This document shows positions 15,019 through 39,076 of a stretch of 39,326 nt of DNA, one piece after another. Numbering within the stretch: the first letter of the stretch is position 1; each line of letters opens with the position of its first letter. Both the position numbers and the translations under genes were made by a program. Under the pieces are notes generated by a model. It searched no databases, was not told where the DNA came from, and saw only the letters and a list, made by a program, of their open reading frames with translations. Origin of the DNA: Syntrophaceae bacterium (lineage in GTDB: Bacteria; Desulfobacterota; BSN033; UBA1163); NCBI GenBank assembly GCA_018333715.1, contig JAGXSW010000068.1:1-39326 (forward strand), written 5' to 3'.

Positions 15019-17148
15019 GTGAATAAGCCTATGATGCAAAAGTTGCAGATCGAATTGGGGGGAAGACCCTTTTCCATGGAGACAGGAAGGATGGCCAAGC
15101 AGGCCAGCGGCTCTGTGGTGGTTCAGTATGGCGAGACCGTCGTTCTGGTCACAGCGGTGTCATCGGAGGAGAAGAGAGAGGGGATTGACTTTCTCCCTCT
15201 TACGGTGAACTATCAGGAAATGACCTATGCGGCGGGAAGAATCCCCGGAGGATTTTTTAAGAGGGAGGGAAGGGCGACCGACCGTGAGATCCTCATCTCC
15301 CGATTTATCGACCGACCCTTGAGGCCTCTCTTCCCGAAAGGATTTCAGAACGAGACACAGATCATTGCAACGGTTCTCTCTGCAGATTCGGAAAATGATC
15401 CTTCTGTTCTGGGAATGATCGGGGCTTCGACCGCCCTCTATCTCTCCGATATTCCGTTCGATGTTCCCATCGCGGGAGCAAAAGTGGGAAGAATCAACGG
15501 GGAATATGTCCTCAACCCCGCGCCCGACGAACTGGAGCTGAGCGACATCGATCTCTTTGTCGCCGGAAGCGAGGATGCGATCATCATGGTCGAGGGGAGC
15601 GCAAAGGAGATGAAAGAGGAGGCCATCCTGGAGGCCATTCTATTCGGCCACCAGTCCCTTAAGCCTGTCATCGAACTCCAAAAACAGCTCAGAGAAGTTT
15701 GTGGAACGAAGAAGAGGGAGTTCGACGTCGAAAAACCCGACGCGGCCCTTCTCGAAAAGGTGACGGGGATCACCCAAGAAAAATTAGGGGAGGCCTATCG
15801 GATCCCGGAAAAGATGAAGAGGCGCGAGCATCTGGAGGAAATTTTTAATTTCACCCTGAAGGAATGTCAGGCCGAGGATGAGCCGTCCCGGAAGATGGTG
15901 AAGAAAGTTTTCGAGGAGGCGGACCGCAAACTGAAGAGAAAATGGATCCTGGAGAAGAGAGAGAGGATCGATGGGAGGGGGCTGCCGGAGATTCGTCCCA
16001 TCTCATGCGAAGTCGGAATCCTTCCCCGAACCCATGGCTCCGCCCTGTTCACGCGCGGAGAAACCCAGGTGCTGGCCGTGGTCACTTTTGGCACGTCCGA
16101 AGACGAACAGAAGATCAACTCCTTGATGGGAGAAACCTATAAATCTTTTATGCTTCACTACAACTTTCCCCCGTTCAGCACCGGGGAAGTCTCTCCCTTG
16201 AGATCGCCTTCCCGAAGAGAGATCGGCCATGGCGCTCTGGCCGAGCGGGCGATCCTTCCCGTCCTTCCCTCCAGCGAGAAATTCCCTTACACGATTCGAA
16301 TCGTCTCAGAGGTCCTGGAGTCCAATGGCTCCTCTTCGATGGCCACCGTATGCGGAGCAACCCTCTCCCTGATGGATGCGGGCGTTCCCATCAAAGCACC
16401 TGTCGCAGGCATTGCCATGGGGTTGATTCTTGAAAGCGGAGGAGAGGCGATCCTCTCCGATATCCTGGGAGACGAAGATCATATCGGCGACATGGATTTC
16501 AAGATGGCGGGCACAGCCGAAGGGGTGACGGCCATTCAGATGGACGTCAAGATCAAGGGGATATCCAGAGAGGTGCTGGGCCGCGTTCTCCAGCAGTCAC
16601 GCGAGGGAAGACTCTATATCCTTGAGAAGATGAGAGAGACCCTCCCTGATCCACGGAAGGACCTCTCCCGGCATGCCCCGAGGATCGTTACCCTCCAGGT
16701 CAAACAGGAGAAGATTCGCGACATCATCGGACCGGGAGGAAAGAATATCCGGTCCATTGTCGATCAGACCGGCGTGAAAATCGATGTGGAGGATTCCGGC
16801 GCGGTCAAGCTGGCCTCTCCCAATTATGAATCGATTGAAAAAGCGATCCTGATCATCAAAAGGCTCACACAGGAAGTGGAAGTGGGGGGAATCTACAAGG
16901 GCAAGGTGATAAGGATCATGGGATTTGGCGCCATTGTCGAGATCTTTCCGGGGACGGATGGCCTGGTCCACATCTCTCAACTGGCGGATCACCATGTCAA
17001 AGAGGTGACCGATATCGTGAAGGAGGGGGATGATATCCCGGTCAAGGTGATCGAGGTTGATCCGCAGGGTCGAATCCGCCTCAGCCGAAAGGCCGCCCTG
17101 AAAGAGACCATGCACTCGAAAGAGGAGAAAGGATCGGAAAAGGTCTGA
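15019..17148 (+). CDS. pnp: polyribonucleotide nucleotidyltransferase (PNPase)
   Basis: Two RNase PH domains, then KH (GPGGKNIRSI) and S1 (YKGKVIRIMGFGAIVEI). The start could be ATG 15031/15034 rather than GTG 15019. Confidence 0.97.
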   Translation: MNKPMMQKLQIELGGRPFSMETGRMAKQASGSVVVQYGETVVLVTAVSSEEKREGIDFLPLTVNYQEMTYAAGRIPGGFFKREGRATDREILISRFIDRPLRPLFPKGFQNETQIIATVLSADSENDPSVLGMIGASTALYLSDIPFDVPIAGAKVGRINGEYVLNPAPDELELSDIDLFVAGSEDAIIMVEGSAKEMKEEAILEAILFGHQSLKPVIELQKQLREVCGTKKREFDVEKPDAALLEKVTGITQEKLGEAYRIPEKMKRREHLEEIFNFTLKECQAEDEPSRKMVKKVFEEADRKLKRKWILEKRERIDGRGLPEIRPISCEVGILPRTHGSALFTRGETQVLAVVTFGTSEDEQKINSLMGETYKSFMLHYNFPPFSTGEVSPLRSPSRREIGHGALAERAILPVLPSSEKFPYTIRIVSEVLESNGSSSMATVCGATLSLMDAGVPIKAPVAGIAMGLILESGGEAILSDILGDEDHIGDMDFKMAGTAEGVTAIQMDVKIKGISREVLGRVLQQSREGRLYILEKMRETLPDPRKDLSRHAPRIVTLQVKQEKIRDIIGPGGKNIRSIVDQTGVKIDVEDSGAVKLASPNYESIEKAILIIKRLTQEVEVGGIYKGKVIRIMGFGAIVEIFPGTDGLVHISQLADHHVKEVTDIVKEGDDIPVKVIEVDPQGRIRLSRKAALKETMHSKEEKGSEKV

Positions 17149-23456: not shown

Positions 23457-23718
23457 ATGGAATGATGGAACAATGGAATAATGGGTGAGAAAAAGGGATT
23501 TTTATGGTTTTACTCAACATTGATAGTCTCGTAAAAAGTCGTCTCACCGGTGAAAACCGGTGTCCAGTGTTTTCATAACCGTCTGAGATTACTGGATTCC
23601 CCGATCAAGTCGGGGAATGACGATCATTAGGATTTTTAGACTTTTTACGAGACCATCAACCTTCCATTATTCCAATATTCCAGTATTCCGGAATTTTATT
23701 GTCCATACTGATCATTAA
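23457..23718. repeat. composite intergenic repeat (family B hairpin plus TTGTCCAT module, reverse orientation) interrupted by a MITE
   Basis: Reverse-complement collinear with 12975-13243 and 28248-28362. Confidence 0.8.
23523..23657. mobile_element. MITE family A copy with decayed target-site duplication
   Basis: ATAGTCTCGTAAAAAGTC...GACTTTTTACGAGACCATC. Flanks are AACATTG and AACCTTC, against the uninterrupted AACATTC (as GAATGTT) at 28299-28305. Confidence 0.85.
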
Positions 23719-25698: not shown

Positions 25699-26811
25699 AT
25701 GAACAAAAAAGAGAGAAAACTATTAGTGGTGGATGACAACATCGACTTCGTCCATTTCATACGGAGAGCTTTGGAACAGGAGAATTACCGAATCTCCATC
25801 GCCCTGGATGGGAAAACAGCCATTGAAAAAGCGTCAACAGAAAATCCGGAGCTCATTCTCCTTGACATGAAACTGCCTGACATATCGGGAGAAGAGGTAT
25901 TGGAGAGGGTTAAGGAGATCAATAAAGGTATCCCCGTGATGGTCATCACCGGTTATGGAGGAGACCAGTTGGCCATCGACATGATGAGAAAAGGGGCTGT
26001 CGATTTTCTCACAAAACCTCTGGAACCCCGGATTCTTATCAAGGCGATAAAGAACGCCCTGGCGATTCACGACACCCGGCAGGAGGACAAAAAGTTTAAC
26101 CCCTATCCCTCTCTTGAAATATTTTTCCCTTTTCTCGCCCATGAGATTCGAAATCCCCTCCATGCCATCTCAGGGGCCCTGGCCATCATCCAAAAGCGCT
26201 GTAATTTGAAGGATCAATTTCTCACCCAATCCATCAAGATCATCCATGAAGAAGTTCAGCGCTTAAATGATTTCGTTCAGGGGTGTCTCAATTTTGTAAG
26301 ACCTCCCGATTTCATTCGTTTCAGCGAGGTGAACCTCCGGGAGGTGATTTCAGTGACCGTGAGCATGCTGGCTCACATGTTTGAATCCGAATCAAATAAA
26401 ATCGAGATCACCGTCAAGGCTGATCCTGATCTCCCAAAGGTTTATGTCAATTATGAAGAGATTAAACAAGCCTTTTTAAACATCATCAAAAATGCCTATG
26501 AGGCGATGCCTGAAGGAGGGGAATTATCGATCGAGGCCTCCGAGACCCATGAATCCCCCAAAATGATAGAAGTTGTTTTTACGGATCAGGGGGTAGGAAT
26601 AAAGAAGGAAGCGATGGGCTCTCTCTTTAGTCCTTTTTATACCAACAAACCCAGGGGAAATGGGTTAGGGTTGGCCCTCTGTCGAAGAATCATTGTCGAA
26701 CGTCATCAGGGGACAATCCATATCGAAAGCGAAGAAAAGAAGGGAACAACGGTTAAAGTAAAGTTGCCCGCCACCCGACTACAAGAAAATACTCCAGGAG
26801 AAGCATCGTGA
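25699..26811 (+). CDS. hybrid receiver-histidine kinase (REC-HisKA-HATPase), cytoplasmic
   Basis: REC motifs VVDDN, LLDMKLPD, ITGYG, LTKP. H-box FLAHEIRNPL, N-box NIIKNAYEAM, G-boxes DQGVGI and GNGLGL. No TM segment. Confidence 0.9.
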   Translation: MNKKERKLLVVDDNIDFVHFIRRALEQENYRISIALDGKTAIEKASTENPELILLDMKLPDISGEEVLERVKEINKGIPVMVITGYGGDQLAIDMMRKGAVDFLTKPLEPRILIKAIKNALAIHDTRQEDKKFNPYPSLEIFFPFLAHEIRNPLHAISGALAIIQKRCNLKDQFLTQSIKIIHEEVQRLNDFVQGCLNFVRPPDFIRFSEVNLREVISVTVSMLAHMFESESNKIEITVKADPDLPKVYVNYEEIKQAFLNIIKNAYEAMPEGGELSIEASETHESPKMIEVVFTDQGVGIKKEAMGSLFSPFYTNKPRGNGLGLALCRRIIVERHQGTIHIESEEKKGTTVKVKLPATRLQENTPGEAS

Positions 26812-28188
26812 CGTCTCAAGCTTCTATTTTAGTGGTCGATGACGAACCCAATTCTCTTTTCGGAATATGCGAGGTTCTCAACGATGAGGGTTTTAATGTC
26901 CTTCCGGCCGGAAACGGGAGAGAAGCGTTGGGGTTGCTCCATGTGAATCCCATCAATGTGATCGTGACCGACGAGAAGATGCCTGACTTGAGCGGCATGC
27001 AGTTCCTCGCCGAAGTAAAGAAGAACCATCCAGACATTCCGGTGATCCTCATCACGGCTTACGGGTCCGTTTCGATGGCGGTTGAAAGCCTCAAGCAAGG
27101 GGCGTTCTATTTCTTTGAAAAACCGATTTTCAATAATTTAGAGAGATTTGTCACCATCATCCGGCAGGCCGTCAAAACTCAGGAGATGGAGAAAGAAATC
27201 AACTCTCTAAGAAGAGAAGTGACTGAAAAATATTCTTTCCCAAATGTCATCGGGAATCACCCCAAAATGATTGAGATTTTTGAGACCATTGGAAAGGTAT
27301 CCAGGACCGATGCGACCATTCTCATTCAGGGGGAGAGCGGGACCGGGAAAGACATCATTGCAAAAAACGATCCATTACAATAGTTCGAGACGGGAAAAAC
27401 CGCTGGTAACCGTCAATTGTGGAGCGCTCACGGAAAGCCTTCTCACGACGGAATTATTTGGCCACACAAGGGGAGCGTTTACAGGCGCGGTCAAGGATAC
27501 GATCGGACGCTTTCAGGCAGCCCATGAAGGGAGCTTGATCTTGGATGAAATCAGTGAAATTCCAGTCAATCTTCAAAAAAACCTTTTAAGAGTGATCGAA
27601 GAAAAGGAGTTTGAAAGGGTGGGGGATTCGAGGTCGACCAAGGTCGATGTTCGAATCATCTCCACAACCAACCGAAACCTTAGGGAAGAGGTGGTCAAAG
27701 GTAATTTCAGGGAAGATCTTTATTATCGATTGGGCATCGTTCCAATAACTCTCCCCCCCTTAAGGGAGCGCCTCTCAGACCTCCCATTGCTGGTCAACCA
27801 TTTTCTTAAGAAGTTCCAGAAAGGCAAGGTTCCGTTAAAAATTGAGCCGGAAGCAATCGAGCGTCTCAAGACATTTTCCTGGCCTGGAAATGTCAGGGAA
27901 TTGGCCAATGTGGTTCAGCAGATGGCGGTTTTCTGTCGAAATCATATCATCAGGGTTGATGACCTTCCTTCCCACCTTCTTCTCAATGCGGAAGATGTCC
28001 TGGCTGGGGAAAAGGGGAAGGTTGACTTAATGAAGAGGGTAGGAAATCTTGAGAAAAAAACAATTCTTGCTAAATTGAAAGAGACCAACTGGAATCAAGA
28101 GAAGACAGCAGAACTGCTTGGAATAACAAGGAAAATGCTGTCGAATCGAATCGATAAATATCATCTCAAGCCATTAAAAAAGAGGTGA
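26808..28188 (+). pseudogene. NtrC-family sigma-54-dependent response regulator (REC-AAA+-HTH) with the frame broken at an A6 run
   Basis: - ORF 26808-27383 ends GESGTGKDIIAKNDPLQ*.
- The +1 frame continues KTIHYNSSRREKPLVTVNCGA...GAFTGA...Fis-type HTH.
- Deleting one A at 27362-27367 restores GKDIIAKTIHY. Confidence 0.85.
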
Positions 28189-28213
28189 TCTTCGTGTTTG
28201 GGCAATAGTCAAT

Positions 28214-28362
28214 GGGTTAAGGTTACGGTTACGAAGCCCGTAACGTACAATGAACGATGGACAACGAACATCCGTAATAATGGAAGATTGGAATAATGGA
28301 ATGTTGGGTAAAACTAAAAGATAACTTCTCCTTACCCATTATTCCACTATTCCATCATTCCA
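28214..28362. repeat. uninterrupted composite repeat (family C core, CAATGAACGATGGACAA module and family B hairpin): the empty-site reference
   Basis: Contains both intact MITE target heptamers, AAGATTG at 28284-28290 and GAATGTT at 28299-28305. Confidence 0.85.
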
Positions 28363-28378
28363 CTTGAGGATATAATCT

Positions 28379-29293
28379 ATGGACTCTCACTGGATTCTTC
28401 TGATCGATCCCTTTAAAAATCTCTTGAACACCTACCGGATGATTTTGGAGGAGGAAAATTATTGTATTGATACAGCCCTTAATACGAAAGACGCCCGCTC
28501 TCTTTTTGATATAAGGCCATACTCGGCTATCCTTATGGAATATATCCCGCCCCTTGAGCATTTGCAGGAACTGATCCGGTGGATGAAAGAAAAGTCTCCT
28601 GAAATCTATATCCTGATGGTGACGAATGCGGTGGTGGACGAAACCACCTATGAGAAACTTTTTGAGATAGGGGTCGATGACTTCATTCTGAAACCCTATG
28701 CCCCTCAAAAAATCATCATCCGTATTAAAAAGGGGTTGAAGCAAAGAGAGATGATCGTAAAGGTCAACCAATTAGAAAGATTGAACCTCCTTGATCCCAT
28801 CGCAAGAAATATTGAGGAATTGATATTCAGCAAAATATTTTTAAAAAGATGTCTTCGACAGGAATTAAAGAAATCGAGACGGCACTGCCATCCTTTCTCG
28901 ATTCTCCTCATGCAAATCCCGGCGAAGGAAAAGGGCGGGGAACAATATGACCATTTTTATGGCGAACTTGCAAGGAGGATTAGAAAATTTATAAGGGAAG
29001 AGGATCTCATGATAAAGAATAATGGGGAGATTGTTCTCCTCCTTCCTGATACCAACCAGATGGGTTCCCAAGCCTTGAGGGGGAGGCTTTCAAATTTAAT
29101 TCGAAATGATCCCTCATGGATATCTGACGATCTCCTAAGTGCGATGCTTCAAGCCTCATCATTTCAATGTTTTACCTATCCTGACCAGTTTGATCTTCCA
29201 GAACCCCTCAGAGGCGTAGTTCAAGAGATGCAGAAGGAATTGTCCCTCAATAGTTCCTCCTTTTTGCTCCAGAACCGAAACTCCTCGAAATGA
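28379..29293 (+). CDS. atypical receiver domain fused to a degenerate GGDEF domain that retains an RxxD I-site
   Basis: - REC-like with E at the phospho-acceptor position (ILMEY) and only one acidic residue in LLIDPF.
- The GGDEF fold is traceable (DPIARN...SILLMQIP...GELARRI...LLLPDT).
- The active site is NGEIV in place of GG(D/E)EF.
- REED sits in register with the PleD RxxD I-site, four residues ahead of the GG-equivalent position. Confidence 0.75.
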   Translation: MDSHWILLIDPFKNLLNTYRMILEEENYCIDTALNTKDARSLFDIRPYSAILMEYIPPLEHLQELIRWMKEKSPEIYILMVTNAVVDETTYEKLFEIGVDDFILKPYAPQKIIIRIKKGLKQREMIVKVNQLERLNLLDPIARNIEELIFSKIFLKRCLRQELKKSRRHCHPFSILLMQIPAKEKGGEQYDHFYGELARRIRKFIREEDLMIKNNGEIVLLLPDTNQMGSQALRGRLSNLIRNDPSWISDDLLSAMLQASSFQCFTYPDQFDLPEPLRGVVQEMQKELSLNSSSFLLQNRNSSK

Positions 29294-29446
29294 TTCAAAT
29301 TAATTCTCTCCCATGTGCCATTTGGCTCACAAAAAGCGCCAAATGGTTGATCTGGACACTTATCGAAATATTTCTCCAAAACTTTCTCTCAACAATCATC
29401 AACCAATTCGATAGATTACAAAGTTTTCAGGAGAAGCCAATAGATT

Positions 29447-29460
29447 GGTATAATTATTGC
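29447..29460 (+). promoter_or_regulatory. weak candidate sigma-54 promoter TGGTAT-AATTA-TTGC
   Basis: Correct GG-N10-GC spacing and a TTGCT -12 element, but a poor -24 element in an AT-rich context. About 250 nt upstream of 29706. Confidence 0.25.
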
Positions 29461-29514
29461 TATATAATGCGAAACTGAGGTCAATTGGTAAAGGTTACGT
29501 TCAAAGACTTAAAA

Positions 29515-29660
29515 CACTAGTGTACTGTTACAGTAATCACTTTACAATCTTGTCATTCCGGACTTGATCCGGAATCCAGTCTTTTCTATCTGGATTCCCG
29601 CTTTCGCGGGAATGACATTTCTAGGGTTATTGTAAAGCTGTTATTGAAACACTACACTAG
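29515..29660. mobile_element. MITE-like element sharing family A inner hairpin modules but with different termini
   Basis: Termini CACTAGTGTA...TACACTAG. Inner GTCATTCCGGACTTGATCCGGAATCCAG and CTGGATTCCCGCTTTCGCGGGAATGAC. Confidence 0.7.
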
Positions 29661-29705
29661 CCAGATATAGGCCTTTCCACCGTTCAACTTAACCTTTTTC
29701 CACCC

Positions 29706-30107
29706 ATGTCAAAAGAAACCATTCTCATCCTCAATAAAGAACGTGGGGATTCCTCTCATCTAAAAACCTTTTTAGAAAAAGAGAAATATATTGTGCTCCC
29801 GGTCAATACCATTGATAGGCTATTAACCAATTTCCAGGAATTCGAAGTTTCAGGGGTCATTGTTGATCTTAATGCGGATCATCTTTACCTTTCTGAAATC
29901 ATTAAAAAAATAAGGGAAAGGTTCCCCAAACTCTATGTCATGATGATGGCGGATGGGAAGATTGGCGAAAAGGAGCATCAGAAGGTGATCGAGACAGGGG
30001 TTTATGATTTCTTTGTCAAGCCGATGCCTTTCGAAAAAATCCTTTTTCACCTTAAAAGCGGATTGAAACAACGCAAGAAATATCTTCAAAAAAGAGCGGA
30101 AAGCTAA
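29706..30107 (+). CDS. single-domain atypical receiver protein
   Basis: REC fold with NKE replacing the DD acidic pair and M at the T/S position. D (VIVDLN) and K (FFVKP) are retained. The tail GLKQRK is paralogous to that of 28379. Confidence 0.7.
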   Translation: MSKETILILNKERGDSSHLKTFLEKEKYIVLPVNTIDRLLTNFQEFEVSGVIVDLNADHLYLSEIIKKIRERFPKLYVMMMADGKIGEKEHQKVIETGVYDFFVKPMPFEKILFHLKSGLKQRKKYLQKRAES

Positions 30108-30147
30108 TCCAGTCAGATTGTTTAAAAAGTGATGGAGGAGTGAAATT

Positions 30148-31809
30148 ATGGAACTGAATACCCTGTCTAAGACATTTGAAAAAATCCCGGAAAGTTCCTT
30201 TTTCATGAACAAAGGCAATCGGGCATTCGGCCTCTTCGAGAAGGTTCAGGGGGCGATGCGTCATGTGCCTGATTTTGGTGAAACCTGCATGGCCATTTTG
30301 GATGTTGTGATCGAGGAGACCGATGCCGAAAACTGCTCACTGATGTTGAAAGATCCCGTTTCCGGATATCTCGTGGTTCGTTCAGCCCGAGGGAAGGGTG
30401 AAAAAAAGAGTGTTTTTTACCCCGAACAGCCTGGAAATGGAGAAAGATTTAGATCCGGAGATGGCATTGCGGGGAAAGTTCTCAAAGAAGGACAGGCCAT
30501 CATGCTGAATGATGTGAAAAAAGAGCCCCATTTCTTAAAGGCAGATGGCTTGAGCGAAAAAGTAAATTCCCTGATCTGTTTTCCCATCCGGGAAGAGGAT
30601 CAAGTCGTGGGAGTATTTAACATCAGCCATTCCCAAAGAGGAGCCTTCAACGAAGGAGACAAATGGGCGCTATCCTATATCTCCAACCAGGTCGGAAGGG
30701 CTCTCACCTCCTCACGGTTCTTTTTAGAGATAAAGGAAATAAACCGTTTAATGAAGCAGTCTGAAAAGCCTTCGCCTGCCGCCCCTCCCGCCTTTGTGGA
30801 AGTCGGCGAAATGACTCGTGAGAACGGGATTTTTATCTATGCAAGTGAAAAAATGCATCGAATTAAAGAACTGATTGATCAAGTTGCCGATACAGACGTG
30901 ACGGTCTTGATCCAGGGGGAGAGCGGCGTTGGAAAAGAGGTGGTTGCCCGCTCGATCCATCTCAATTCTTTTCGGAAAGAAAAGCCGTTTGTCAAAGTGA
31001 ATTGCGCCGCTCTTCCGCAAGAACTTCTGGAAAGTGAACTGTTTGGCTATGAGAAGGGCGCCTTTACGGGGGCTTACCGGCAGAAACCGGGGAAATTTGA
31101 ACTTGCCCAAGCCGGTACGATCTTTTTAGACGAGATCTCAGAGATGAGCCCTTTTCTCCAGGGCAAGCTTTTACAAGTGCTTCAGGACAGAGAATTCTCA
31201 AGATTGGGAGGGAAGAAAGATATATGGGTGGATGTTCGGGTCTTGGCTGCTACAAATAAAAATATCGAAGAAATGGTAAACCATCAACGATTTCGTGAAG
31301 ATCTCTATTATCGTCTCAATGTCGTCAACGTTACCCTTCCTCCCCTGAGGGAGAGGAAGGAGGAAATTCCCGTTTTTATCGAATATTTTTTGGATAAATT
31401 CAGCAAAAAATACCAGAAAAAGGCACACCCATTATCGAGCAAGATCATGAGGATTTTTAAACAACATCGTTGGCTGGGAAATGTTCGTGAACTGGAGAAT
31501 GTCGTTCAGCGTTACGTGATTCTTGAAAACGAAAAGATGATTATGGATGAATTAACTCATGGGATCATCGAGAATGCGACCATCGAAAAAGAACGGTCCC
31601 TCGCCCATTCCAAAGCCTGGCCTTCATTGAAAGATGCCTATAGAGAAGCCACGATCAAAGCGGAATCCGAATCCATTCTCAAGGCATTGCAGATAACGAA
31701 CTGGAATAGAAAAAGAGCAGCCCAACTCCTCAATATAAGCTATAAAGCGCTCCTTTATAAGATTAAAGATAGTGGCCTTGATAAGCTCATTCTCCCTATG
31801 ACGGCTTAA
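30148..31809 (+). CDS. GAF-domain sigma-54-dependent transcriptional activator
   Basis: N-terminal GAF-like domain ([18 protein letters not shown]), Walker [25 protein letters not shown]-terminal Fis-type [22 protein letters not shown]. Confidence 0.9.
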
Positions 31810-31841
31810 ATTTTCATATCATATTAAGGAGTTGAATGGTG

Positions 31842-31987
31842 ATGGTCTCGTAAAAAGTCGAAAAATCATAATAATCGTCATTCCCCGACTTGATCGGGAA
31901 ATCCAGTAATCTCAGGCACTTATGAAAATACTGGACACCGGTTTTTCCCGCGTTTCGCGGGATGAGACGACTTTTTATGAGACCATC
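31842..31987. mobile_element. MITE family A copy (inverted orientation) with a perfect 7-bp target-site duplication AATGGTG
   Basis: ATGGTCTCGTAAAAAGTC...GACTTTTTATGAGACCATC. AATGGTG at 31835-31841 and 31988-31994. Confidence 0.9.
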
Positions 31988-32068
31988 AATGGTGGTTATA
32001 ATAAAAATCAAAAAAGAATATCTTTTGAAAAGAGAACTCCCCGTTTTTTTTCGATGGTAAAGGGCAAT

Positions 32069-32126
32069 AAGTGGTAACGATTTGCCACATTTTCCCGAAT
32101 CGTTACCACTTTTTTATTTTTTTTTT
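32069..32126 (+). terminator. rho-independent terminator (14-bp stem plus long T-run)
   Basis: AAGTGGTAACGATT-N14-AATCGTTACCACTT followed by TTTTTATTTTTTTTTT. Confidence 0.75.
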
Positions 32127-32213
32127 AAAAAAATGTGATTTGTTTCAACTTTTAAGCAAAGAAATTTATATAGTTACAAAAGGTTAGAAGATTAGCGATA
32201 AATTATTTTTGCT

Positions 32214-32228
32214 TGGCACTTTAATTGC
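32214..32228 (+). promoter_or_regulatory. sigma-54 promoter TGGCAC-TTTAA-TTGC
   Basis: Exact consensus. ATG 32246 lies 17 nt after the GC. Confidence 0.8.
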
Positions 32229-32245
32229 TCTTCAATTTAATTGTT

Positions 32246-33301
32246 ATGAATAACTTTTCTAAAATTATTTTTTCTAATAGTTTAAAGATGAAAAAGGTCA
32301 AAACCATTATTGATCAAATCGCACAGACCGATATCACGGTTTTAATAAAAGGCGAAAGCGGAACGGGGAAGGAATTGATAGCCAGGACGATTCACGATGT
32401 TTCTCCGAGGGCAAAAAACAATTTTATAAAACTGAATTGCGCTGCCATTCCTAAAAGCCTCATTGAAAGCGAGTTTTTTGGGTTTGAAAAAGGGGCCTTT
32501 ACAGGAGCCCACCTCAAGAAGCCGGGGAAGTTCGAATTAGCCCATGGGGGAACAATATTGCTAAATGACATCGGTGAGATAGACATTTCGATCCAGGGCA
32601 AACTTCTCCAGGTCCTCCAGGATGGAAAATTTTCCCGATTGGGAGGAGAGGGGGATGTCCTGATCGATGCCCGGATCATCGTCACCACTAAAAATCATTT
32701 GGAAAGATCTATGATGGAAGGGCTTTTCCGTGAGGACCTTTTCTACAGGATTAATATCATCAGCATCACGGTTCCTCCCCTAAGAGAACGGAAGGAACAG
32801 ATCCTTCCGCTTACCGAATATTTTTTCAATTTTTTTAAAGAGAAATATAGAAGGGATGTCCCCTCCCTCTCGCCGAAAGCCACCAGGATATTCAAAGAAT
32901 ACCTTTGGCCGGGAAACATCCGGGAATTAGAGAACGTCGTCAAGCGGATGGTCGTCACATCGGATGAAAAGGCGGTCATTCAAATGCTTCTCGGAAAAAA
33001 GGAGAATGGCGAGATCGTCGTCGAATCCTTAAGGCCCAACGGCATCGGAGAACCGCTCCTCAATTTGAAGGAAGTGGGAAGAAAAGCGGGTGAAGAAGCG
33101 GAGAAAGATCTCATTCATGCCACCCTCCATGAGACCCATTGGAATCGAAAGGAGGCGGCCGAATTGCTCCGTACCAGTTACAAGGCGTTGCTCTATAAAA
33201 TTGAGAAATACCATTTGAATAATGGGAGGGAGTATCAGGGAAAGGGAGAGATGGCCGGTTCAATCACTGAACCCATCTCAAACAGGACTGGAGGAAAGTG
33301 A
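32246..33301 (+). CDS. sensorless sigma-54 activator (AAA+ plus HTH only)
   Basis: The AAA+ domain begins within about 20 aa of the start (KKVKTIIDQIAQTDITVLIKGESGTGKE). GAFTGA is present, with [22 protein letters not shown]. No REC, GAF or PAS domain. Confidence 0.88.
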   Translation: MNNFSKIIFSNSLKMKKVKTIIDQIAQTDITVLIKGESGTGKELIARTIHDVSPRAKNNFIKLNCAAIPKSLIESEFFGFEKGAFTGAHLKKPGKFELAHGGTILLNDIGEIDISIQGKLLQVLQDGKFSRLGGEGDVLIDARIIVTTKNHLERSMMEGLFREDLFYRINIISITVPPLRERKEQILPLTEYFFNFFKEKYRRDVPSLSPKATRIFKEYLWPGNIRELENVVKRMVVTSDEKAVIQMLLGKKENGEIVVESLRPNGIGEPLLNLKEVGRKAGEEAEKDLIHATLHETHWNRKEAAELLRTSYKALLYKIEKYHLNNGREYQGKGEMAGSITEPISNRTGGK

Positions 33302-33918
33302 TGGAAAAATTAATGTCCTTTGGAATCATTGGGATAGCCATCCTTTTGATCTATTATTCAGCGGCTTACCCTCAAACAGAGAAAGAGGGCCTGTTAAAAA
33401 AACAGCTCCAGGCTGAGGTGGTTGCTGATAGTGAAAATTATATCATCGGGTCGGAGGATATCCTTTACATCCATGTATGGAGGGAGGATGCATTATCAAG
33501 ATCCGTTCCGGTGAGAGTGGATGGATATATTTCCTTGCCCCTCATTCACGAAGTGAAGGCAGCCGGCCTTACGCCTCTTCAATTAAAAGAGGAAATAACT
33601 AAAAAATTAAAGGAGTTTATTGAGAGCCCCAATGTTTCTGTCACCGTGATGGAAGCCAATAGTTTCAAGGTTTTTGTTTCAGGGCAAGTCAGGACCCCGG
33701 GGGTCATACGGCTTCGAAGCGAAACCACCATCCTTCAATTGATTCCCATGGTGGGGGGGTTCACAGACTGGGCCAACCAGAAGAAGATTCTGATCATTCG
33801 AAAAGAAGACGGAAAAGAGAAGCGTATTACGATTAACTACAAACGGATTGTTGATGGAAAGGATTTGAATTCAAATATCATTCTAAAATCGGGCGACACT
33901 ATTATCGTCCCGGATTAA
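33301..33918 (+). CDS. polysaccharide export protein (Wza/Poly_export plus SLBB; PEP-CTERM-locus type)
   Basis: YIIGSEDILYIHVW...VRVDGYISLPLI..V.AAGLTPLQL...V.V.EANSFKVFVSGQVRTPG...LKSGDTIIVP. The ATG overlaps the upstream TGA (GTGATGG) behind GGAGGAAAG. Confidence 0.9.
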   Translation: MEKLMSFGIIGIAILLIYYSAAYPQTEKEGLLKKQLQAEVVADSENYIIGSEDILYIHVWREDALSRSVPVRVDGYISLPLIHEVKAAGLTPLQLKEEITKKLKEFIESPNVSVTVMEANSFKVFVSGQVRTPGVIRLRSETTILQLIPMVGGFTDWANQKKILIIRKEDGKEKRITINYKRIVDGKDLNSNIILKSGDTIIVPD

Positions 33919-33926
33919 GAGGTGAT

Positions 33927-35393
33927 ATGAGGATAACAAAAAAGGCTACCTCTAATAATGTCATTCCTGCGAAAGCAGGAATCAAGAAATTTTTGAAATC
34001 ACTGGACTCCCGCCTGTGCGAGTGTGGCAAATTGATAATTATTAGAGGTTCCCAAAAGAGAATCTGGCTGGGGATAGCGATCCTTTTCCCAATCATCGTG
34101 GGAATACCCATCGTCGTCCAGGCGGCAGTCGAGGACATCCTCTCGCACTTTCAGGTCTATGTGACGGCCCAGGAAGAATATAACAGTAATATCGACCTGA
34201 GGCCGAACCGATTTAAAAGGGACGATTTTATTACCACGATCTCTCCCGGGATAAGATTTTCCACAACACCCAAATCACCTGTGACGGGTGAATTCAGGCA
34301 GACCCCCACTGCTGAAGAAAGGTATGGCGTGGATCTCGACTTCCGGGCGGGATTCGTCTTTTATGCCAAAGAACATGATGACAATTATATCAGTCTTAAC
34401 GGAACGCTCAACGGTTGGTATACATTCACCCGAAATTTAACTTTCCGGGTGAGGGACTACCTGATTCGGTCCGATGAAATAAGAGAAACGGACTTGTCTG
34501 CCAGTGCGCTGCCGGGCCAAACTCTTCTTGCGAGAACCAACCGGAGAGAGCCCTATTACCGAAATGTCTTTGAACCTTCCCTGGAATATCGGTTTGGGAG
34601 AGAAAACCTTGTTGCCGTTAACTACCGAAACAGCATCTACAGGATTAAGAGCCGGACCGCTGAAGACAGCACGGAAAACTATTTCAATCCCAGGGTCGCC
34701 TATTGGTTCAATGTCAGACATGGCGTCTCCTTTGAATATGGCCTGTCACTCGGAGATTTCCAGCGATCCCCCGATTTGGTAGGGCATATGGCGATGGGCC
34801 GTTATACCTATCGTTTTAATCCGAGGACTTCGGTCTTCGGGGAATATACTTATTTAACCCGTGATTTTGAATCGCCTTCGATTGGCTATGATGTCCATCG
34901 ACCGAGCCTTGGGATTGACCATGCTTTCAGTCCGACATTGAGCGGAAGGGGACAGGCGGGGCACTTCTGGCAAAACCCGGAGAGAGGTTCCACCACCCGT
35001 GGGTTCTTTTATGATGCAAGCCTCTCGAAGCGTGGAGATAAGACCACCTATGCTCTCTCTTTTCAGGGAGGATATACAGAGGTTTATTTTGCTGCTGAGA
35101 ATCTTGGTTTTATAAAAAACCATCGAGTAACTGGGAGTATCACTCACCAACTTCTACAAAGGATGTCCGTCGGACTTTATAGCAGTTATGAATGGGCCAA
35201 ATACCCCGGGACCGAGATCGGGTTCAGAACGCCCGTCGATCAAATCTGGGGGGTTGGAGGAAATGCCTCGTATCAGATACTGAGATGGCTTAATCTATCC
35301 CTTGATCTCTCGCACCGGGAGAATCGCTCCAATATTTCAGACAGGGACTATAGCGAATACCGCGGGATGTTAAGAGCAACAGCCACCTATTAA
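33927..35393 (+). CDS. outer-membrane beta-barrel protein, PEP-CTERM/EPS-locus associated, with a repeat-derived insert in its N-terminus
   Basis: Signal peptide KRIWLGIAILFPIIVGIPIVVQA. Alternating beta-strand pattern throughout, with an aromatic C-terminal residue (ATATY). Residues 8-41 are encoded by the repeat at 33949-34048. Confidence 0.8.
   Translation: MRITKKATSNNVIPAKAGIKKFLKSLDSRLCECGKLIIIRGSQKRIWLGIAILFPIIVGIPIVVQAAVEDILSHFQVYVTAQEEYNSNIDLRPNRFKRDDFITTISPGIRFSTTPKSPVTGEFRQTPTAEERYGVDLDFRAGFVFYAKEHDDNYISLNGTLNGWYTFTRNLTFRVRDYLIRSDEIRETDLSASALPGQTLLARTNRREPYYRNVFEPSLEYRFGRENLVAVNYRNSIYRIKSRTAEDSTENYFNPRVAYWFNVRHGVSFEYGLSLGDFQRSPDLVGHMAMGRYTYRFNPRTSVFGEYTYLTRDFESPSIGYDVHRPSLGIDHAFSPTLSGRGQAGHFWQNPERGSTTRGFFYDASLSKRGDKTTYALSFQGGYTEVYFAAENLGFIKNHRVTGSITHQLLQRMSVGLYSSYEWAKYPGTEIGFRTPVDQIWGVGGNASYQILRWLNLSLDLSHRENRSNISDRDYSEYRGMLRATATY
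33949..34048. mobile_element. short MITE-like element with 11-bp perfect terminal inverted repeats inside the coding region
   Basis: CCTCTAATAAT...ATTATTAGAGG. Inner module GTCATTCCTGCGAAAGCAGGAATC is shared with family A and translates as VIPAKAGI. Confidence 0.7.
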
Positions 35394-35403
35394 CACGTGA
35401 GGT

Positions 35404-35451
35404 CCCCTCACCCTCCCCTCTCCCCGTGGGGGAGAGGGAAAGGGTGAGGGG
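35404..35451. repeat. GC-rich palindrome (REP-like intercistronic stem-loop)
   Basis: CCCCTCACCCTCCCCTCTCCCC-GT-GGGGGAGAGGGAAAGGGTGAGGGG. No T-run follows. Confidence 0.7.
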
Positions 35452-35480
35452 CGACTAACGATTTTACGGAGTATAAAACC

Positions 35481-37046
35481 ATGCCCGAACAAACGCCTTT
35501 AAACATTCATGATTACTTAGCCATTGGCCTCCGGAGGAAATGGTACATCCTCATTCCCCTCATCGTCTGTGTTCTGGGTTCTTTTGGGGTCTATAAATAC
35601 CTCCCGAAGGTTTATCAGGCCACCACGCTCATTCTGGTTCAGCCCCAGAGGGTTCCGGAGGCTTATGTCCGTCCGACCGTCACCGAAACGGTGGCGAGCC
35701 GGTTGAACACGATCAGCCAGGAAATCCTGAGCAGAACCAGGCTGGAGCAGGTGATTCTCGAATTCAGCCTTTATCCCGAGATTCGAAACAAAGTCCCGAT
35801 GGAAGGAATGGTCGAAATGATGAGAAGAGCGATCGAGGTCAAAGTTCAGGGAAATCCTCGAAGCGACCGGGACCAGAACTCGTTTTCGATTTCCCACGAA
35901 GGGAGAGATCCCCGGACGGTCATGATGGTGACGAACAAGCTTGCTTCCCTGTTCATTGAAGAGAACCTGAAAGTGAGAGAGTTGCGCGCAGAAGGCACTT
36001 CGGCCTTTATCACCAAAGAGCTCGCGGCCGTGGAGGAGCAACTGAAGAAGAAAGAAGCGGACCTCCGCCTTTTTAGGGAACGAAATATGGGACAGCTTCC
36101 CCAGCAACTCGATGCCAACTTAAGAATCCTTGATCAATTGCAGCAGCAGATTAAAACCACAAGCGAGAATATCCGGGCTGCCGAAGACAGAAACATCGTG
36201 ATTCAGAATCAAATTGAGATGCTGAAAAAACGCGAGCCTGTTCAAACCTCAAGGGAGGTTCCAAGGGATCCTGTCTCGGGGTTGGAAAGTCCGACCGCTG
36301 AGCGGGTTCGCGAGGATTCCCTGGTCGTACAACTGAACCTTCTGAAGAGGGATTTGAACAATGCCCAGTCCAGGTATAAGGAAACCCACCCGGATGTCAT
36401 CGATCTGAAGAAAAAGATAGAAAACCTCGAGCCCAAAGTGAAGGAAATACTGGAAAAGCAGGGAGTGGAGAGAGAAACGCGGGCGAGAGATTTCAGGGTC
36501 CGCCAGGAAGGGGTGATCGTTGGAAACTTGCCTCCGCCCGCGCCGGATCTTGAAACCCAGAGACTCCTCACCCAGTATACGGAGCAGTACAATGCGGCGG
36601 CATTAGAGGCGAAGCGGTTTAGGGAAGAAGAAAAAGGCTTGAAGGATCAAATCAATCTGTATCAACGAAGAATCGAGAATACGCCAAAGCGTGAGCAGGA
36701 ACTGACCCTCTTGACCCGGGATTACGATCTGATGAAGATCAATTACCAGTCTCTCCTGGAAAAAAAAATCCAGGCCCAGTTGGCGGAGAATCTCGAGCGC
36801 AAACAGCAGGGTGAGCAGTTTAAAATCCTGGACCCGGCACGTGTTCCTGTCACCCCGATTCGACCCGATCGGAATAGGATTCTTCTCATAGGAGTTGCCA
36901 TCGGCCTTGCTCTTGGGGTGGGGTTAACCTGGTTTAAAGAAACGATGAATCAGTCTTTCAAAACAGTCTCCGACGTTGAGAGCGAACTTGGATTGACGGT
37001 CCTGGCCGCCATCCCGAATTTAAAAAAAGAAAAGAAAGCCGCCTGA
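35481..37046 (+). CDS. polysaccharide chain-length determinant (Wzz/PCP family, PEP-CTERM-locus type)
   Basis: N-terminal TM segment (KWYILIPLIVCVLGSFGVY), long coiled-coil periplasmic region, C-terminal TM segment (ILLIGVAIGLALGVGLTWF). Confidence 0.88.
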   Translation: MPEQTPLNIHDYLAIGLRRKWYILIPLIVCVLGSFGVYKYLPKVYQATTLILVQPQRVPEAYVRPTVTETVASRLNTISQEILSRTRLEQVILEFSLYPEIRNKVPMEGMVEMMRRAIEVKVQGNPRSDRDQNSFSISHEGRDPRTVMMVTNKLASLFIEENLKVRELRAEGTSAFITKELAAVEEQLKKKEADLRLFRERNMGQLPQQLDANLRILDQLQQQIKTTSENIRAAEDRNIVIQNQIEMLKKREPVQTSREVPRDPVSGLESPTAERVREDSLVVQLNLLKRDLNNAQSRYKETHPDVIDLKKKIENLEPKVKEILEKQGVERETRARDFRVRQEGVIVGNLPPPAPDLETQRLLTQYTEQYNAAALEAKRFREEEKGLKDQINLYQRRIENTPKREQELTLLTRDYDLMKINYQSLLEKKIQAQLAENLERKQQGEQFKILDPARVPVTPIRPDRNRILLIGVAIGLALGVGLTWFKETMNQSFKTVSDVESELGLTVLAAIPNLKKEKKAA

Positions 37047-37051
37047 CCAAG

Positions 37052-37090
37052 CAAATGCTCGCAGAGCGCAAAGCGCAAAGCGAGCATTTG
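37052..37090. repeat. 11-bp perfect stem-loop CAAATGCTCGC-N17-GCGAGCATTTG
   Basis: Read directly. Intercistronic, with no T-run. Confidence 0.6.
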
Positions 37091-37131
37091 AAAATTAGGT
37101 TTTACGCTATGCGCTATGCGAGATTCTGAAA

Positions 37132-38127
37132 ATGTACGAAACTTTTTACGGCTTAAATGAAAATCCATTTAATGTGACGCCGAATCCGGAGTTTATCTTT
37201 CTCGGGAAAAACCACCGGGAAGCCCTGGCTCAGTTGCTTTATGGGGTCAGGGAGAAGAAAGGGTTTATTGTCATAACCGGAGAAGTGGGCACGGGAAAGA
37301 CCACTTTGATTCATTATCTTCTTGAGAAACTGGAGGGAAACAACCATACCAAGACGGCCTTTCTCTTCAACCCCAAATTAACCGTTCATGATTTCATTCA
37401 ATACATACTCAAGGATTTGGGGGTAAGGGTTCAGGGGCAAACGAAGGGCGAACATCTTCATCATCTTCATCGATATTTACTGAACGCTTACCGGAGAGAC
37501 GAGCGGGTGGTTTTGATCGTGGATGAAGCCCAGGGGTTAAACCCGGAACTTCTCGAAGAGATCAGGCTTCTTTCGAACCTCGAGACCTCAAAGTCTAAAT
37601 TGCTTCAAATTGTGCTGGTGGGTCAGCCGGAATTGGATAAGACGCTTTCACGGCCCGGATTTCGTCAACTCCGACAGAGAATCAACCTGCGATACCATCT
37701 GACGCCTCTTTCCGAAAAGGAGACCGGAGAATACATTGAAAAGAGATTGAGAATTGCCGGTTCACATGACCCCATCTTTACGGACCAGGCCATTCGTGAG
37801 ATCTATCGGAGATCAGGCGGAATACCCAGACTCATTAATATCCTGAGTGACAATGCGCTCTTAAATGGCTTTGCCCTCGATCAAAAACAGGTGAATGCAA
37901 AATCAATCAGGGAAGTTTCCGCAGATCTAAAACTTCATCAGGAGTCTCGTCGGGTCTGGCAATGGGTCCTTCTTTGTTTAGCGATCGTGTCCGGATTCAT
38001 CGTTTTCTTTTATTTAAACCAGGAGGGTTACTTATCGCCTCTTTATCATGAGGTCCTCAGGGGATTTGAATCGGTGAAACGAATATGGGTGGATGGATGG
38101 AAACACTTTTCCAATCTCTTTAACTAA
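37132..38127 (+). CDS. ExeA/GspA-like AAA ATPase (PEP-CTERM-locus secretion ATPase type)
   Basis: MYETFYGLNENPFNVTPNPEFIF, Walker A GEVGTGKTT, Walker B VLIVDEAQ, C-terminal TM segment WVLLCLAIVSGFIVFFY. Confidence 0.9.
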   Translation: MYETFYGLNENPFNVTPNPEFIFLGKNHREALAQLLYGVREKKGFIVITGEVGTGKTTLIHYLLEKLEGNNHTKTAFLFNPKLTVHDFIQYILKDLGVRVQGQTKGEHLHHLHRYLLNAYRRDERVVLIVDEAQGLNPELLEEIRLLSNLETSKSKLLQIVLVGQPELDKTLSRPGFRQLRQRINLRYHLTPLSEKETGEYIEKRLRIAGSHDPIFTDQAIREIYRRSGGIPRLINILSDNALLNGFALDQKQVNAKSIREVSADLKLHQESRRVWQWVLLCLAIVSGFIVFFYLNQEGYLSPLYHEVLRGFESVKRIWVDGWKHFSNLFN

Positions 38128-38239
38128 AACGCTATGCGCCTCCTGTTCTCCGTATTCCTGCGAAGAAAGACGAAGGACGGATGCGCTATGCTTGCCCATC
38201 GAAATGTCCCTGTAGGTGGGCGCTTTGCGAGGTTCTGTC

Positions 38240-39076
38240 ATGAGTCGAGTTTATCGCGCCCTTGAAAGAGCAGAAGAAGAGAAAAAGAAGAAACAGGAAG
38301 GGCCCTCAATCAACGTATTTGAGAACATTGAGGTTTTGAAGAAAGAGAAGCCGGTCGTAAAAATCCGTGAGGAGAAGAGAAAGAGTCTGGGGCTTCTCCC
38401 AAGGGAAGAATTCCCGGTGTTGATGGTTTCGCCTCGCTCTTTTGCAGAGGAGGAATTTCGGAAACTGAAGACACAGCTATTTCTTCGTTTGCCGAACCCC
38501 CCTCATTCGATTCTTGTCACCAGCGCCGTTCCCCGGGAGGGGAAGACAATGGTGGCGGTGAACTTAGCAATGGCGATTTCAAAGGAGATTCATAAAAAGG
38601 CCATCCTGATCGATGGCGATCTCCGAAACCCCGGCATTCATCTCGGTAAAAGCCGGACTTCCAAGGGGCTCTCCGACTATCTTTCCGATGGGACTCCCTT
38701 ACCGGAGATTCTTACAAACTCTGAAGCTGAAAACCTTCAAATCATCACCGCAGGAACTCAAACGGCGAAATCCTCGGAATTGATCGGTTCACCAAGAATG
38801 GGGGAGTTTTTAAAAGCCGTTGCCGAATGCGGAAAAAATGCTTATCTCGTGATCGATTCTTCGCCTGTGATTTCCACGACAGAGCCGACGTTGTTGTCAA
38901 GCATGGTGGACGGCATCATTCTCGTCATCATGGCGGACCGAACCCCCAAGGAGTATGTTCAAAGGGCTCTGAAATCCATCGATCGCCAGAAAATCATTGG
39001 AATCGTTTTAAACCAGATCGATGTTAATCCATCGAATCATTACTCGAGGTATTATTACCAATATTACCAAAAATAG
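38240..39076 (+). CDS. BY-kinase type tyrosine autokinase (exopolysaccharide locus)
   Basis: Walker A PREGKT, A-prime ILIDGDLRNP, Walker B LVIDSSPV, C-terminal Tyr cluster YSRYYYQYYQK. ATG 38240 (MSRVYRALERAEEE) preferred over GTG 38216. Confidence 0.9.
   Translation: MSRVYRALERAEEEKKKKQEGPSINVFENIEVLKKEKPVVKIREEKRKSLGLLPREEFPVLMVSPRSFAEEEFRKLKTQLFLRLPNPPHSILVTSAVPREGKTMVAVNLAMAISKEIHKKAILIDGDLRNPGIHLGKSRTSKGLSDYLSDGTPLPEILTNSEAENLQIITAGTQTAKSSELIGSPRMGEFLKAVAECGKNAYLVIDSSPVISTTEPTLLSSMVDGIILVIMADRTPKEYVQRALKSIDRQKIIGIVLNQIDVNPSNHYSRYYYQYYQK

Follow-up and report, generated by a model that had tools for sequence, protein, structure and literature searches.

A sigma-54 activator without an input domain, here called the sensorless activator, was found in the exopolysaccharide locus of a Syntrophaceae bacterium to carry a degenerate Walker B motif, and it probably works with the neighbouring GAF-domain sigma-54 activator and not as an independent switch. 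The gene lies in the window, by which the whole analysed stretch of 39,326 nucleotides is meant; this is one contig (JAGXSW010000068.1) of a 2.6-Mb metagenome-assembled genome that is 88.6% complete (GCA_018333715.1). The segment in question (32069-33303) is the control region and first cistron of an export operon. The reading to which we incline, with somewhat better than even confidence, is a feed-forward partnership in which the sensorless protein and the GAF activator would act at a shared enhancer in the manner of HrpR/HrpS, and not an autonomous lock.

The main comparison set consisted of orthologues of the sensorless protein (60-93% identical to it) drawn from the genomes of 26 species within the GTDB family and class of this bacterium. 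The closest public relatives carry the labels Thermodesulfobacteriota, Deltaproteobacteria or Syntrophorhabdus metagenome-assembled genomes. In a scan of genome contigs, only L002-L005 of the 80 loci were true orthologues, and the remaining loci, which held ordinary receiver-type or GAF-type activators, were used only as Walker B background. A metagenome scan with the family alignment (generic activator peptides) returned only relatives of at most 54% identity. The genome itself encodes rpoN (209.5 bits) and about 16 activator genes.

The sensorless activator is a protein of 351 amino acids encoded at 32246-33301 on the plus strand, and was described from its Pfam domains and from family conservation. 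Its Pfam content is limited to Sigma54_activat, AAA_lid_14 and HTH_8. The Sigma54_activat match (PF00158) scored 212.2 bits against a cut-off of 20.2 and covered residues 9-174; because the AAA+ domain begins at residue 9, there is no input domain. An earlier note on this DNA had placed the protein among activators of the PspF/HrpRS class that lack a regulatory domain, and while the lack of such a domain stands, the protein is probably not an autonomous ATPase like PspF, as an N-D Walker B runs through the family. When aligned with NtrC1 of Aquifex, "ggtlfldeige" falls on "ggtillndige", so that the D-E pair is replaced by N107-D108 (32564-32569). Among the genomic orthologues, the pair reads ND in 21, NE in two, KE in one and NG in one, and never D-E; the protein alignment includes three more homologues, taken from databases, that have SD. 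The other activators, searched with the same unbiased pattern, had D-E without exception, both in the unrelated loci that had been fetched (139 of 139) and in this genome (10 of 10).

The other elements examined are retained. Invariant in all 22 family members compared are K42, N64, the GAFTGA loop (residues 83-88; 32492-32509), R162, D164, R168 and R226. These include the switch asparagine (N64), the arginine fingers of the RxDxxxR element (R162, D164, R168) and sensor II (R226). The GAFTGA loop, the arginine fingers and sensor II are the elements that serve sigma-54 contact and action in trans, and a Fis-type helix-turn-helix follows at about 33092-33211. A protein in which the cis catalytic residues are lost and the trans-acting and sigma-54-contacting ones are kept would look like a specialised subunit of a mixed ring. 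A truncated gene fragment was also considered and ruled out, as more than 120 database clusters of 324-360 amino acids share the same architecture at 62-93% identity.

The Walker B replacement bears directly on the view that the protein is a constitutive, autonomous activator resembling PspF, which would autoactivate its own promoter and lock the operon on while an anti-activator restrains it. The missing input domain fits such an activator, as do the intact GAFTGA loop, Walker A motif, arginine fingers and helix-turn-helix, and the sensorless gene has its own conserved promoter and enhancer, described below. However, a self-sustaining lock requires an autonomous ATPase, and the Walker B aspartate is missing family-wide. 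In PspF, the D107A substitution reduces the ATPase rate to 0.23 min^-1 compared with 39.5 min^-1 for the wild type, so that about 0.6% is kept (PMC3419264). As judged from its motifs, the sensorless protein would be neither a standard nor a PspF-like autonomous ATPase, which argues against a self-sufficient lock-on, and we regard the autonomous activator as rather unlikely. According to the same study, subunits with a defective Walker B can be rescued when they share a ring with subunits whose trans-acting arginines are defective (PMC3419264).

A candidate partner for a mixed ring is encoded next door. The GAF-domain activator (30148-31809, plus strand; Pfam GAF_2, Sigma54_activat and HTH_8) has a canonical D-E Walker B. 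Of all paralogues in this genome it is the one closest to the sensorless protein, with 51% identity compared with at most 44% for the others. Wherever the contig reaches far enough for a check, a GAF activator gene stands directly before the sensorless gene. In a maximum-likelihood tree, the 26 sensorless and the 23 GAF sequences were each monophyletic, and the two clades stood jointly apart from 12 other activators of this genome with 100/95 support. These sister clades have matching internal topologies and diverge in step, with branches that are consistently longer on the sensorless side. The recognition helix, SYKALLYKI, is common to both proteins and differs from that of the receiver-type activator of the locus (ITRKMLSNRI). 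On these comparisons, the GAF activator is the likely partner of the sensorless protein.

The sensorless gene is preceded by an exact match to TGGCAC-N5-TTGC, TGGCACTTTAATTGC, at 32214-32228, and the promoter that contains it, here termed P2, comprises the -24/-12 elements TGGCAC-N5-TTGCT at 32214-32229 on the plus strand. Exact matches to TGGCAC-N5-TTGC occur nine times genome-wide, compared with four for a reversed control pattern. Upstream of the sensorless gene, TGGCA[CT]-N5-TTGC[TC] was found in 24 of the 26 orthologous loci, all of them from other species. In these loci a variable spacer separates unchanging GG and GC elements, and P2 is for this reason read as a sigma-54 recognition site. 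With rpoN present and strong comparative evidence, P2 appears genuine, and the statements of the earlier note that the activator gene has its own sigma-54 promoter and that this promoter is a perfect match were both borne out.

It had escaped the same note that P2 leaves essentially no leader. The distance from TTGC to the start codon is 15-18 nt in 17 of the 26 loci, 28 nt in two and 57-161 nt in five. In the window, P2 lies 17 nt ahead of the ATG at 32246, which has no Shine-Dalgarno sequence, while the neighbouring genes do have one. Transcription from sigma-54 promoters usually starts about 12 nt after the C of the -12 element. By this geometry, the P2 transcript is predicted to start near 32240, and its leader would therefore be only 4-7 nt long, with no ribosome-binding site. 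The ATG at 32246 is taken as the true start on codon-phase conservation among 23 orthologues, where the column entropy of codons 2-15 is 0.80, 0.43 and 1.02 for the first, second and third positions, compared with 1.6, 1.5 and 1.5, without coding periodicity, in the 15 nt ahead of the ATG. The alternative start at M15 (ATG 32288), which would leave a leader of 48 nt, was refuted by the codon periodicity and by the conserved peptide IIFSNS upstream of M15. An Rfam search of 27000-34000 gave nothing near any gathering score, so no known RNA element was recognised in the spacer.

The near-absent leader also enters the weighing of a negative-feedback role, in which a hydrolysis-impaired paralogue would compete with the GAF activator for the enhancer or poison its rings, and would thereby give a pulse or a set level of expression. 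The recognition helix shared by both proteins, the degenerate Walker B and the position of the gene as the first cistron of the regulated operon are all in keeping with this, and mixed PspF rings with defective subunits can lose activity (PMC3419264). A competitor or poison, however, needs none of the residues that are invariant in 22 of 22 family members (GAFTGA, N64, R162, D164, R168 and R226), and leaderless translation would keep the protein scarce, which is a poor fit for a poison. Negative feedback is therefore held to be improbable.

Between the GAF gene and P2 lies a hairpin followed by a T-run (32069-32126, plus strand), which was characterised by folding and by conservation. It consists of a 16-bp stem with a minimum free energy of -22.1 kcal/mol (z = -5.3), and none of 200 shuffles of the same stretch folded equally well. 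The earlier note had called it a strong terminator that isolates the upstream gene. The stem and the T-run are real and might isolate that gene, but the same bases hold a palindrome that is conserved about 145 nt from the promoter. Within the hairpin, the enhancer-like half-sites are GTGGTAA (32071-32077), TTGCCAC (32082-32088) and TTACCAC (32103-32109), and nearly all orthologous spacers hold AAAGTGGAA-N6-TT(A/T)CCACTTTTTCC-N8-TTCCACTTTT, that is, a GTGG-N10-CCAC palindrome (GTGGAA-N6-TTCCAC) to which a third half-site is added 21 nt further along. Eighteen loci fit a strict form of this pattern; GTGG stands 143-147 nt from TGGCA in 17 of them and 137 nt from it in the other, while the DNA between motif and promoter has diverged freely. 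The composite motif occurs a single time in the genome, by which a dispersed repeat was ruled out.

The conserved sequence and the fixed distance to the promoter fit an activator-binding site better than a terminator, and the hairpin is accordingly read as such a site; 32069-32126 would thus be first of all the probable enhancer, and termination may be an additional role in this lineage. In the comparison among loci, hairpin energies are -20.8 kcal/mol in the window, -23.7 kcal/mol in L169, -28.1 kcal/mol in L172 and between -3 and -16 kcal/mol elsewhere, and across genera the motif sequence is kept and compensatory stem changes are absent. The long stem of this genome thus appears as a local elaboration, with the enhancer extended into a terminator-like hairpin. 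In L172, which belongs to a different genus, the enhancer palindrome about 150 nt upstream of the promoter has independently been lengthened into its long hairpin, which suggests repeated selection for a combined enhancer and terminator.

The same data bear on the proposal that the hairpin is an intrinsic terminator only, that the -24/-12 match is no working promoter and that the sensorless gene is expressed by read-through from the GAF operon. The strong stem with its U-run in this genome agrees with this, and three loci illustrate that co-transcription with the GAF gene works: in L170 and L171, the promoter, the enhancer and the whole spacer are missing and the sensorless gene lies 33-77 nt past the GAF activator gene, and L084 likewise points to co-transcription. 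Yet the sequence is conserved across genera without compensatory stem changes and at a fixed distance from the promoter, the stem is weak in most relatives, and the GG and GC elements are kept with a variable spacer in 24 of 26 loci. A terminator-only role is consequently considered very improbable. Between the stop codon of the GAF activator and the enhancer, a miniature inverted-repeat transposable element was identified at 31835-31994 (no strand assigned) by its terminal inverted repeats and its roughly 45 genome copies. It is missing from the otherwise near-identical spacer of L003/L169, and further copies in the window lie at 1-103 and 23515-23658.

A second sigma-54-like promoter, P1, precedes the genes of a stand-alone receiver and the GAF activator at 29446-29461 on the plus strand (TGGTATAATTATTGCT; TGGTAT-N5-TTGCT), and an equivalent motif was found in L003, L004, L005 and L086. 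The palindrome GCCATTTGGC-N11-GCCAAATGG (29317-29346, plus strand), a probable enhancer of P1, lies about 115 nt upstream of it, is conserved in L003, L004, L005, L082, L084 and L086, and differs from the motif upstream of the sensorless gene. Promoters, probable enhancers and classes of recognition helix thus number two each in this locus, in agreement with an order in which the kinase would act on the receiver-type activator, the latter on P1 (receiver and GAF activator), and the GAF activator on P2 (sensorless activator and export genes). Of the two-step cascade that the earlier note had proposed, the succession of steps is made plausible by the second conserved promoter with its different palindrome and by the shared helix, but the autonomous lock-on is not, given the N-D Walker B.

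At its 3' end, the sensorless gene meets the first export gene, which encodes a Wza-like polysaccharide export protein (33301-33918, plus strand; Pfam Poly_export and SLBB; TIGR03027 at 155 bits against a cut-off of 180). Read directly from the sequence, the junction GGAGGAAAGTGATG (33290-33303, plus strand) contains the Shine-Dalgarno sequence, the activator stop TGA (33299-33301) and the Wza-like start ATG (33301-33303). Stop and start overlap, as the earlier note had stated, by the one base at 33301, and the start lies six bases behind GGAGG (33290-33294); all elements described in that note were thus found at the positions it gave. In 23 of the 26 orthologous loci, however, a gene of about 150 codons stands between the activator and the Wza-like gene (for example L169:2559-3011 and L082:9092-9553, with 21 other loci), whose product has a GGDEF-like domain (PF00990, 31.6 bits) with SIELN in place of GGDEF. 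In L169, the closest relative that keeps it, the junction GGAGGGATGTGATGGCGGGT likewise reads GGAGG..GTGATGG but leads into the GGDEF-like gene and not into Wza. In the window, the small gene is gone and codon 2 of Wza directly follows the inherited ATG, while L168 and L170 show intermediate deletions; no copy of the small gene was found when it was searched for elsewhere in this genome.

Because the small gene has been deleted, the coupling to Wza is an inherited junction newly used and not a conserved design, and comparison of the junctions indicates that the overlap is recent. The translational coupling to the export genes that had been described thus holds as far as the junction with its GGAGG is concerned, but it is a lineage-specific arrangement left by the deletion. 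In the relatives, the small GGDEF-like protein is the best candidate for a trans-acting partner or anti-activator, and in the window, the receiver-GGDEF protein and the stand-alone receiver are candidate trans partners. These proteins also matter for the autonomous activator considered above: a degenerate GGDEF-like gene adjacent in 23 of 26 relatives, with an overlapping stop in L169, could plausibly encode a stoichiometric partner, and the cassette includes the degenerate receiver-GGDEF protein and the stand-alone receiver. Against this, the small partner gene has been lost here and in two close relatives while the activator has been kept.

In the feed-forward partnership that we favour, the GAF activator would be made from its separate sigma-54 promoter with a different enhancer, would bind GTGG-N10-CCAC and would fire P2. 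The sensorless paralogue translated from the P2 transcript would then bind the same sites and enter mixed rings, in which its subunits would hold ATP and sigma-54 but hydrolyse poorly, and in which its arginine fingers would serve the GAF subunits. The result would be a feed-forward loop that still depends on the signal of the GAF activator. The missing leader would keep the regulator scarce, while the export genes behind it, with their Shine-Dalgarno sequences, would be translated well. A more specific and clearly more tentative possibility is a natural, obligately asymmetric ring, in which a hydrolysis-dead subunit that holds ATP would grip sigma-54 with its GAFTGA loop and fire the GAF sites with its arginine fingers, so that its dose would report past promoter activity.

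Several points weigh against the partnership. The GAF activator is fully canonical, and nothing forces a need for a partner. The N-D pair might still permit slow hydrolysis, and D108 could replace the missing acidic residue. The outgroup of the tree is limited to activators of this one genome, and the enhancers are assigned to the activators solely by how similar their recognition helices are. Hairpin and T-run may also form a real terminator, the two roles not being exclusive. In L084, a homologous locus, the sole sigma-54-like promoter sits upstream of the GAF gene; as L170, L171 and L084 co-transcribe the sensorless gene with the GAF activator, the family does not depend on a separate promoter for this gene.

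Among the closest known systems are HrpR/HrpS of Pseudomonas syringae, two sigma-54 activators that are tandem paralogues, depend on each other and assemble into a hetero-hexamer in which their ATP roles are unequal (PMC3105312). Both systems consist of co-evolved tandem paralogues in which one protein has a partly degenerate ATP-site function and both have GAFTGA. They differ in that here one partner is sensorless and the other keeps a GAF input domain, the degeneration (N-D) is already present in the Walker B of the wild-type protein, a separate sigma-54 promoter serves the degenerate partner, and the hetero-oligomer is a prediction only. With PspF of E. coli, which is controlled in trans by PspA, the sensorless protein shares an AAA+ domain plus helix-turn-helix without an input domain and a near-identical active-site numbering (K42, N64, R162 and R168). 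PspF, however, has the Walker B pair D107-E108 and an autonomous ATPase, and against the PspF equivalog model TIGR02974 the sensorless protein scored 253.8 bits, below the cut-off of 443.55. The pspF gene is not known to be transcribed by sigma-54.

Canonical sigma-54 promoters such as glnAp2 and nifH combine a TGGCAC-N5-TTGC core with a palindromic site 100-150 nt upstream. P2 resembles them in the pairing of its core with an upstream palindromic site, but differs in that the start codon follows 15-18 nt past the -12 element without a Shine-Dalgarno sequence and in that the enhancer palindrome forms a terminator-like hairpin. A clean promoter and enhancer geometry together with sigma-54 promoters that lack a ribosome-binding site was not described in combination in the full-text literature searched. 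At the level of the locus, the PEP-CTERM/XrtA floc-formation loci with PrsK/PrsR and RpoN (PMC9850573) are similar, as sigma-54 activators adjoin the same export set of Wza-like exporter, outer-membrane barrel, chain-length determinant, ExeA-like ATPase and tyrosine kinase. The sensorless protein differs from PrsR (TIGR02915) by the lack of a receiver domain, with 304.6 bits against a cut-off of 502.6, and the cassette here has three activators in series.

The cassette is a plus-strand gene array that spans 25.7 kb to 39.1 kb of the window. It begins with a receiver-histidine kinase, the receiver-type sigma-54 activator, the receiver-GGDEF protein and the stand-alone receiver, and continues with the GAF-domain activator, the sensorless activator, the Wza-like exporter, the outer-membrane barrel, the chain-length determinant, the ExeA-like ATPase and the tyrosine kinase. 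The receiver-type activator next to the kinase is split by a frameshift into overlapping frames at 26808-27383 and 27271-28188, while it is intact in L082, L084 and L086; the split (26808-28188) may reflect either a true pseudogene or a mistake of the assembly within an A-run.

The export genes (33301-39076) match NCBIfam models for XrtA/PEP-CTERM accessory proteins, with TIGR03027, TIGR03007, TIGR03015 and TIGR03018 all below their cut-offs. A search for an exosortase (PF09721) gave no match in this 88.6%-complete genome, and among the seven cassette-bearing relatives tested (G005, G006, G008, G014, G015, G016 and G046), only three have an exosortase, always on another contig. As no exosortase is found here and only three of seven relatives have one, the genes are called a PEP-CTERM-type export module and not an XrtA system; the export cassette is not tied to an exosortase. 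Small genes for four-helix-bundle proteins (PF05635, 23S rRNA intervening-sequence protein or bAvd-like) are scattered in the export loci of relatives (L082:13623-13874; L084:13330-13686; L086:9536-9922 and 16257-16622), and none occurs in the window.

A second case of a near-absent leader was found in the same window. The only other exact sigma-54 match, at 551-565, lies 15 nt before the ATG of a gene for a secreted DUF4124 protein (581-1108), which likewise lacks a Shine-Dalgarno sequence. Of the 20 orthologous loci fetched, from about 12 genera, 18 have a sigma-54 promoter before the start of this gene, and the other two miss the search motif. The gap from promoter to start is 12-18 nt in 16 of those 18 loci, and in the remaining two it is 13-15 nt only if a downstream methionine is the true start. 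Elsewhere in this genome, sigma-54 promoters are followed by leaders of about 33-290 nt, and several of these leaders include a clear Shine-Dalgarno sequence. Leaderless sigma-54 transcripts were not described in the full-text literature searched. Sigma-54 messages with almost no leader thus seem to be characteristic of this lineage.

For annotation, the locus teaches that a hairpin and T-run found shortly before a sigma-54 promoter may represent an enhancer palindrome, and its promoter and enhancer form a clean pair at a fixed distance. Work on PspF, NtrC1 and HrpRS has long raised the question whether all six subunits of an activator ring do the same job, and this has so far been approached almost entirely through engineered Walker B mutants and mixing. 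An apparent natural, wild-type pair, in which one activator is canonical and signal-sensing and the other has lost the cis-acting catalytic residues but kept those that act in trans or contact sigma-54, makes this question directly testable; if the reading of an asymmetric ring is true, the sensorless proteins would be the first activator family whose Walker B is dead in the wild type. The locus further yields two conserved sigma-54 promoters without room for a ribosome-binding site, and, if true, P2 and the DUF4124 promoter together would make leaderless sigma-54 transcripts a regular feature of this bacterial family.

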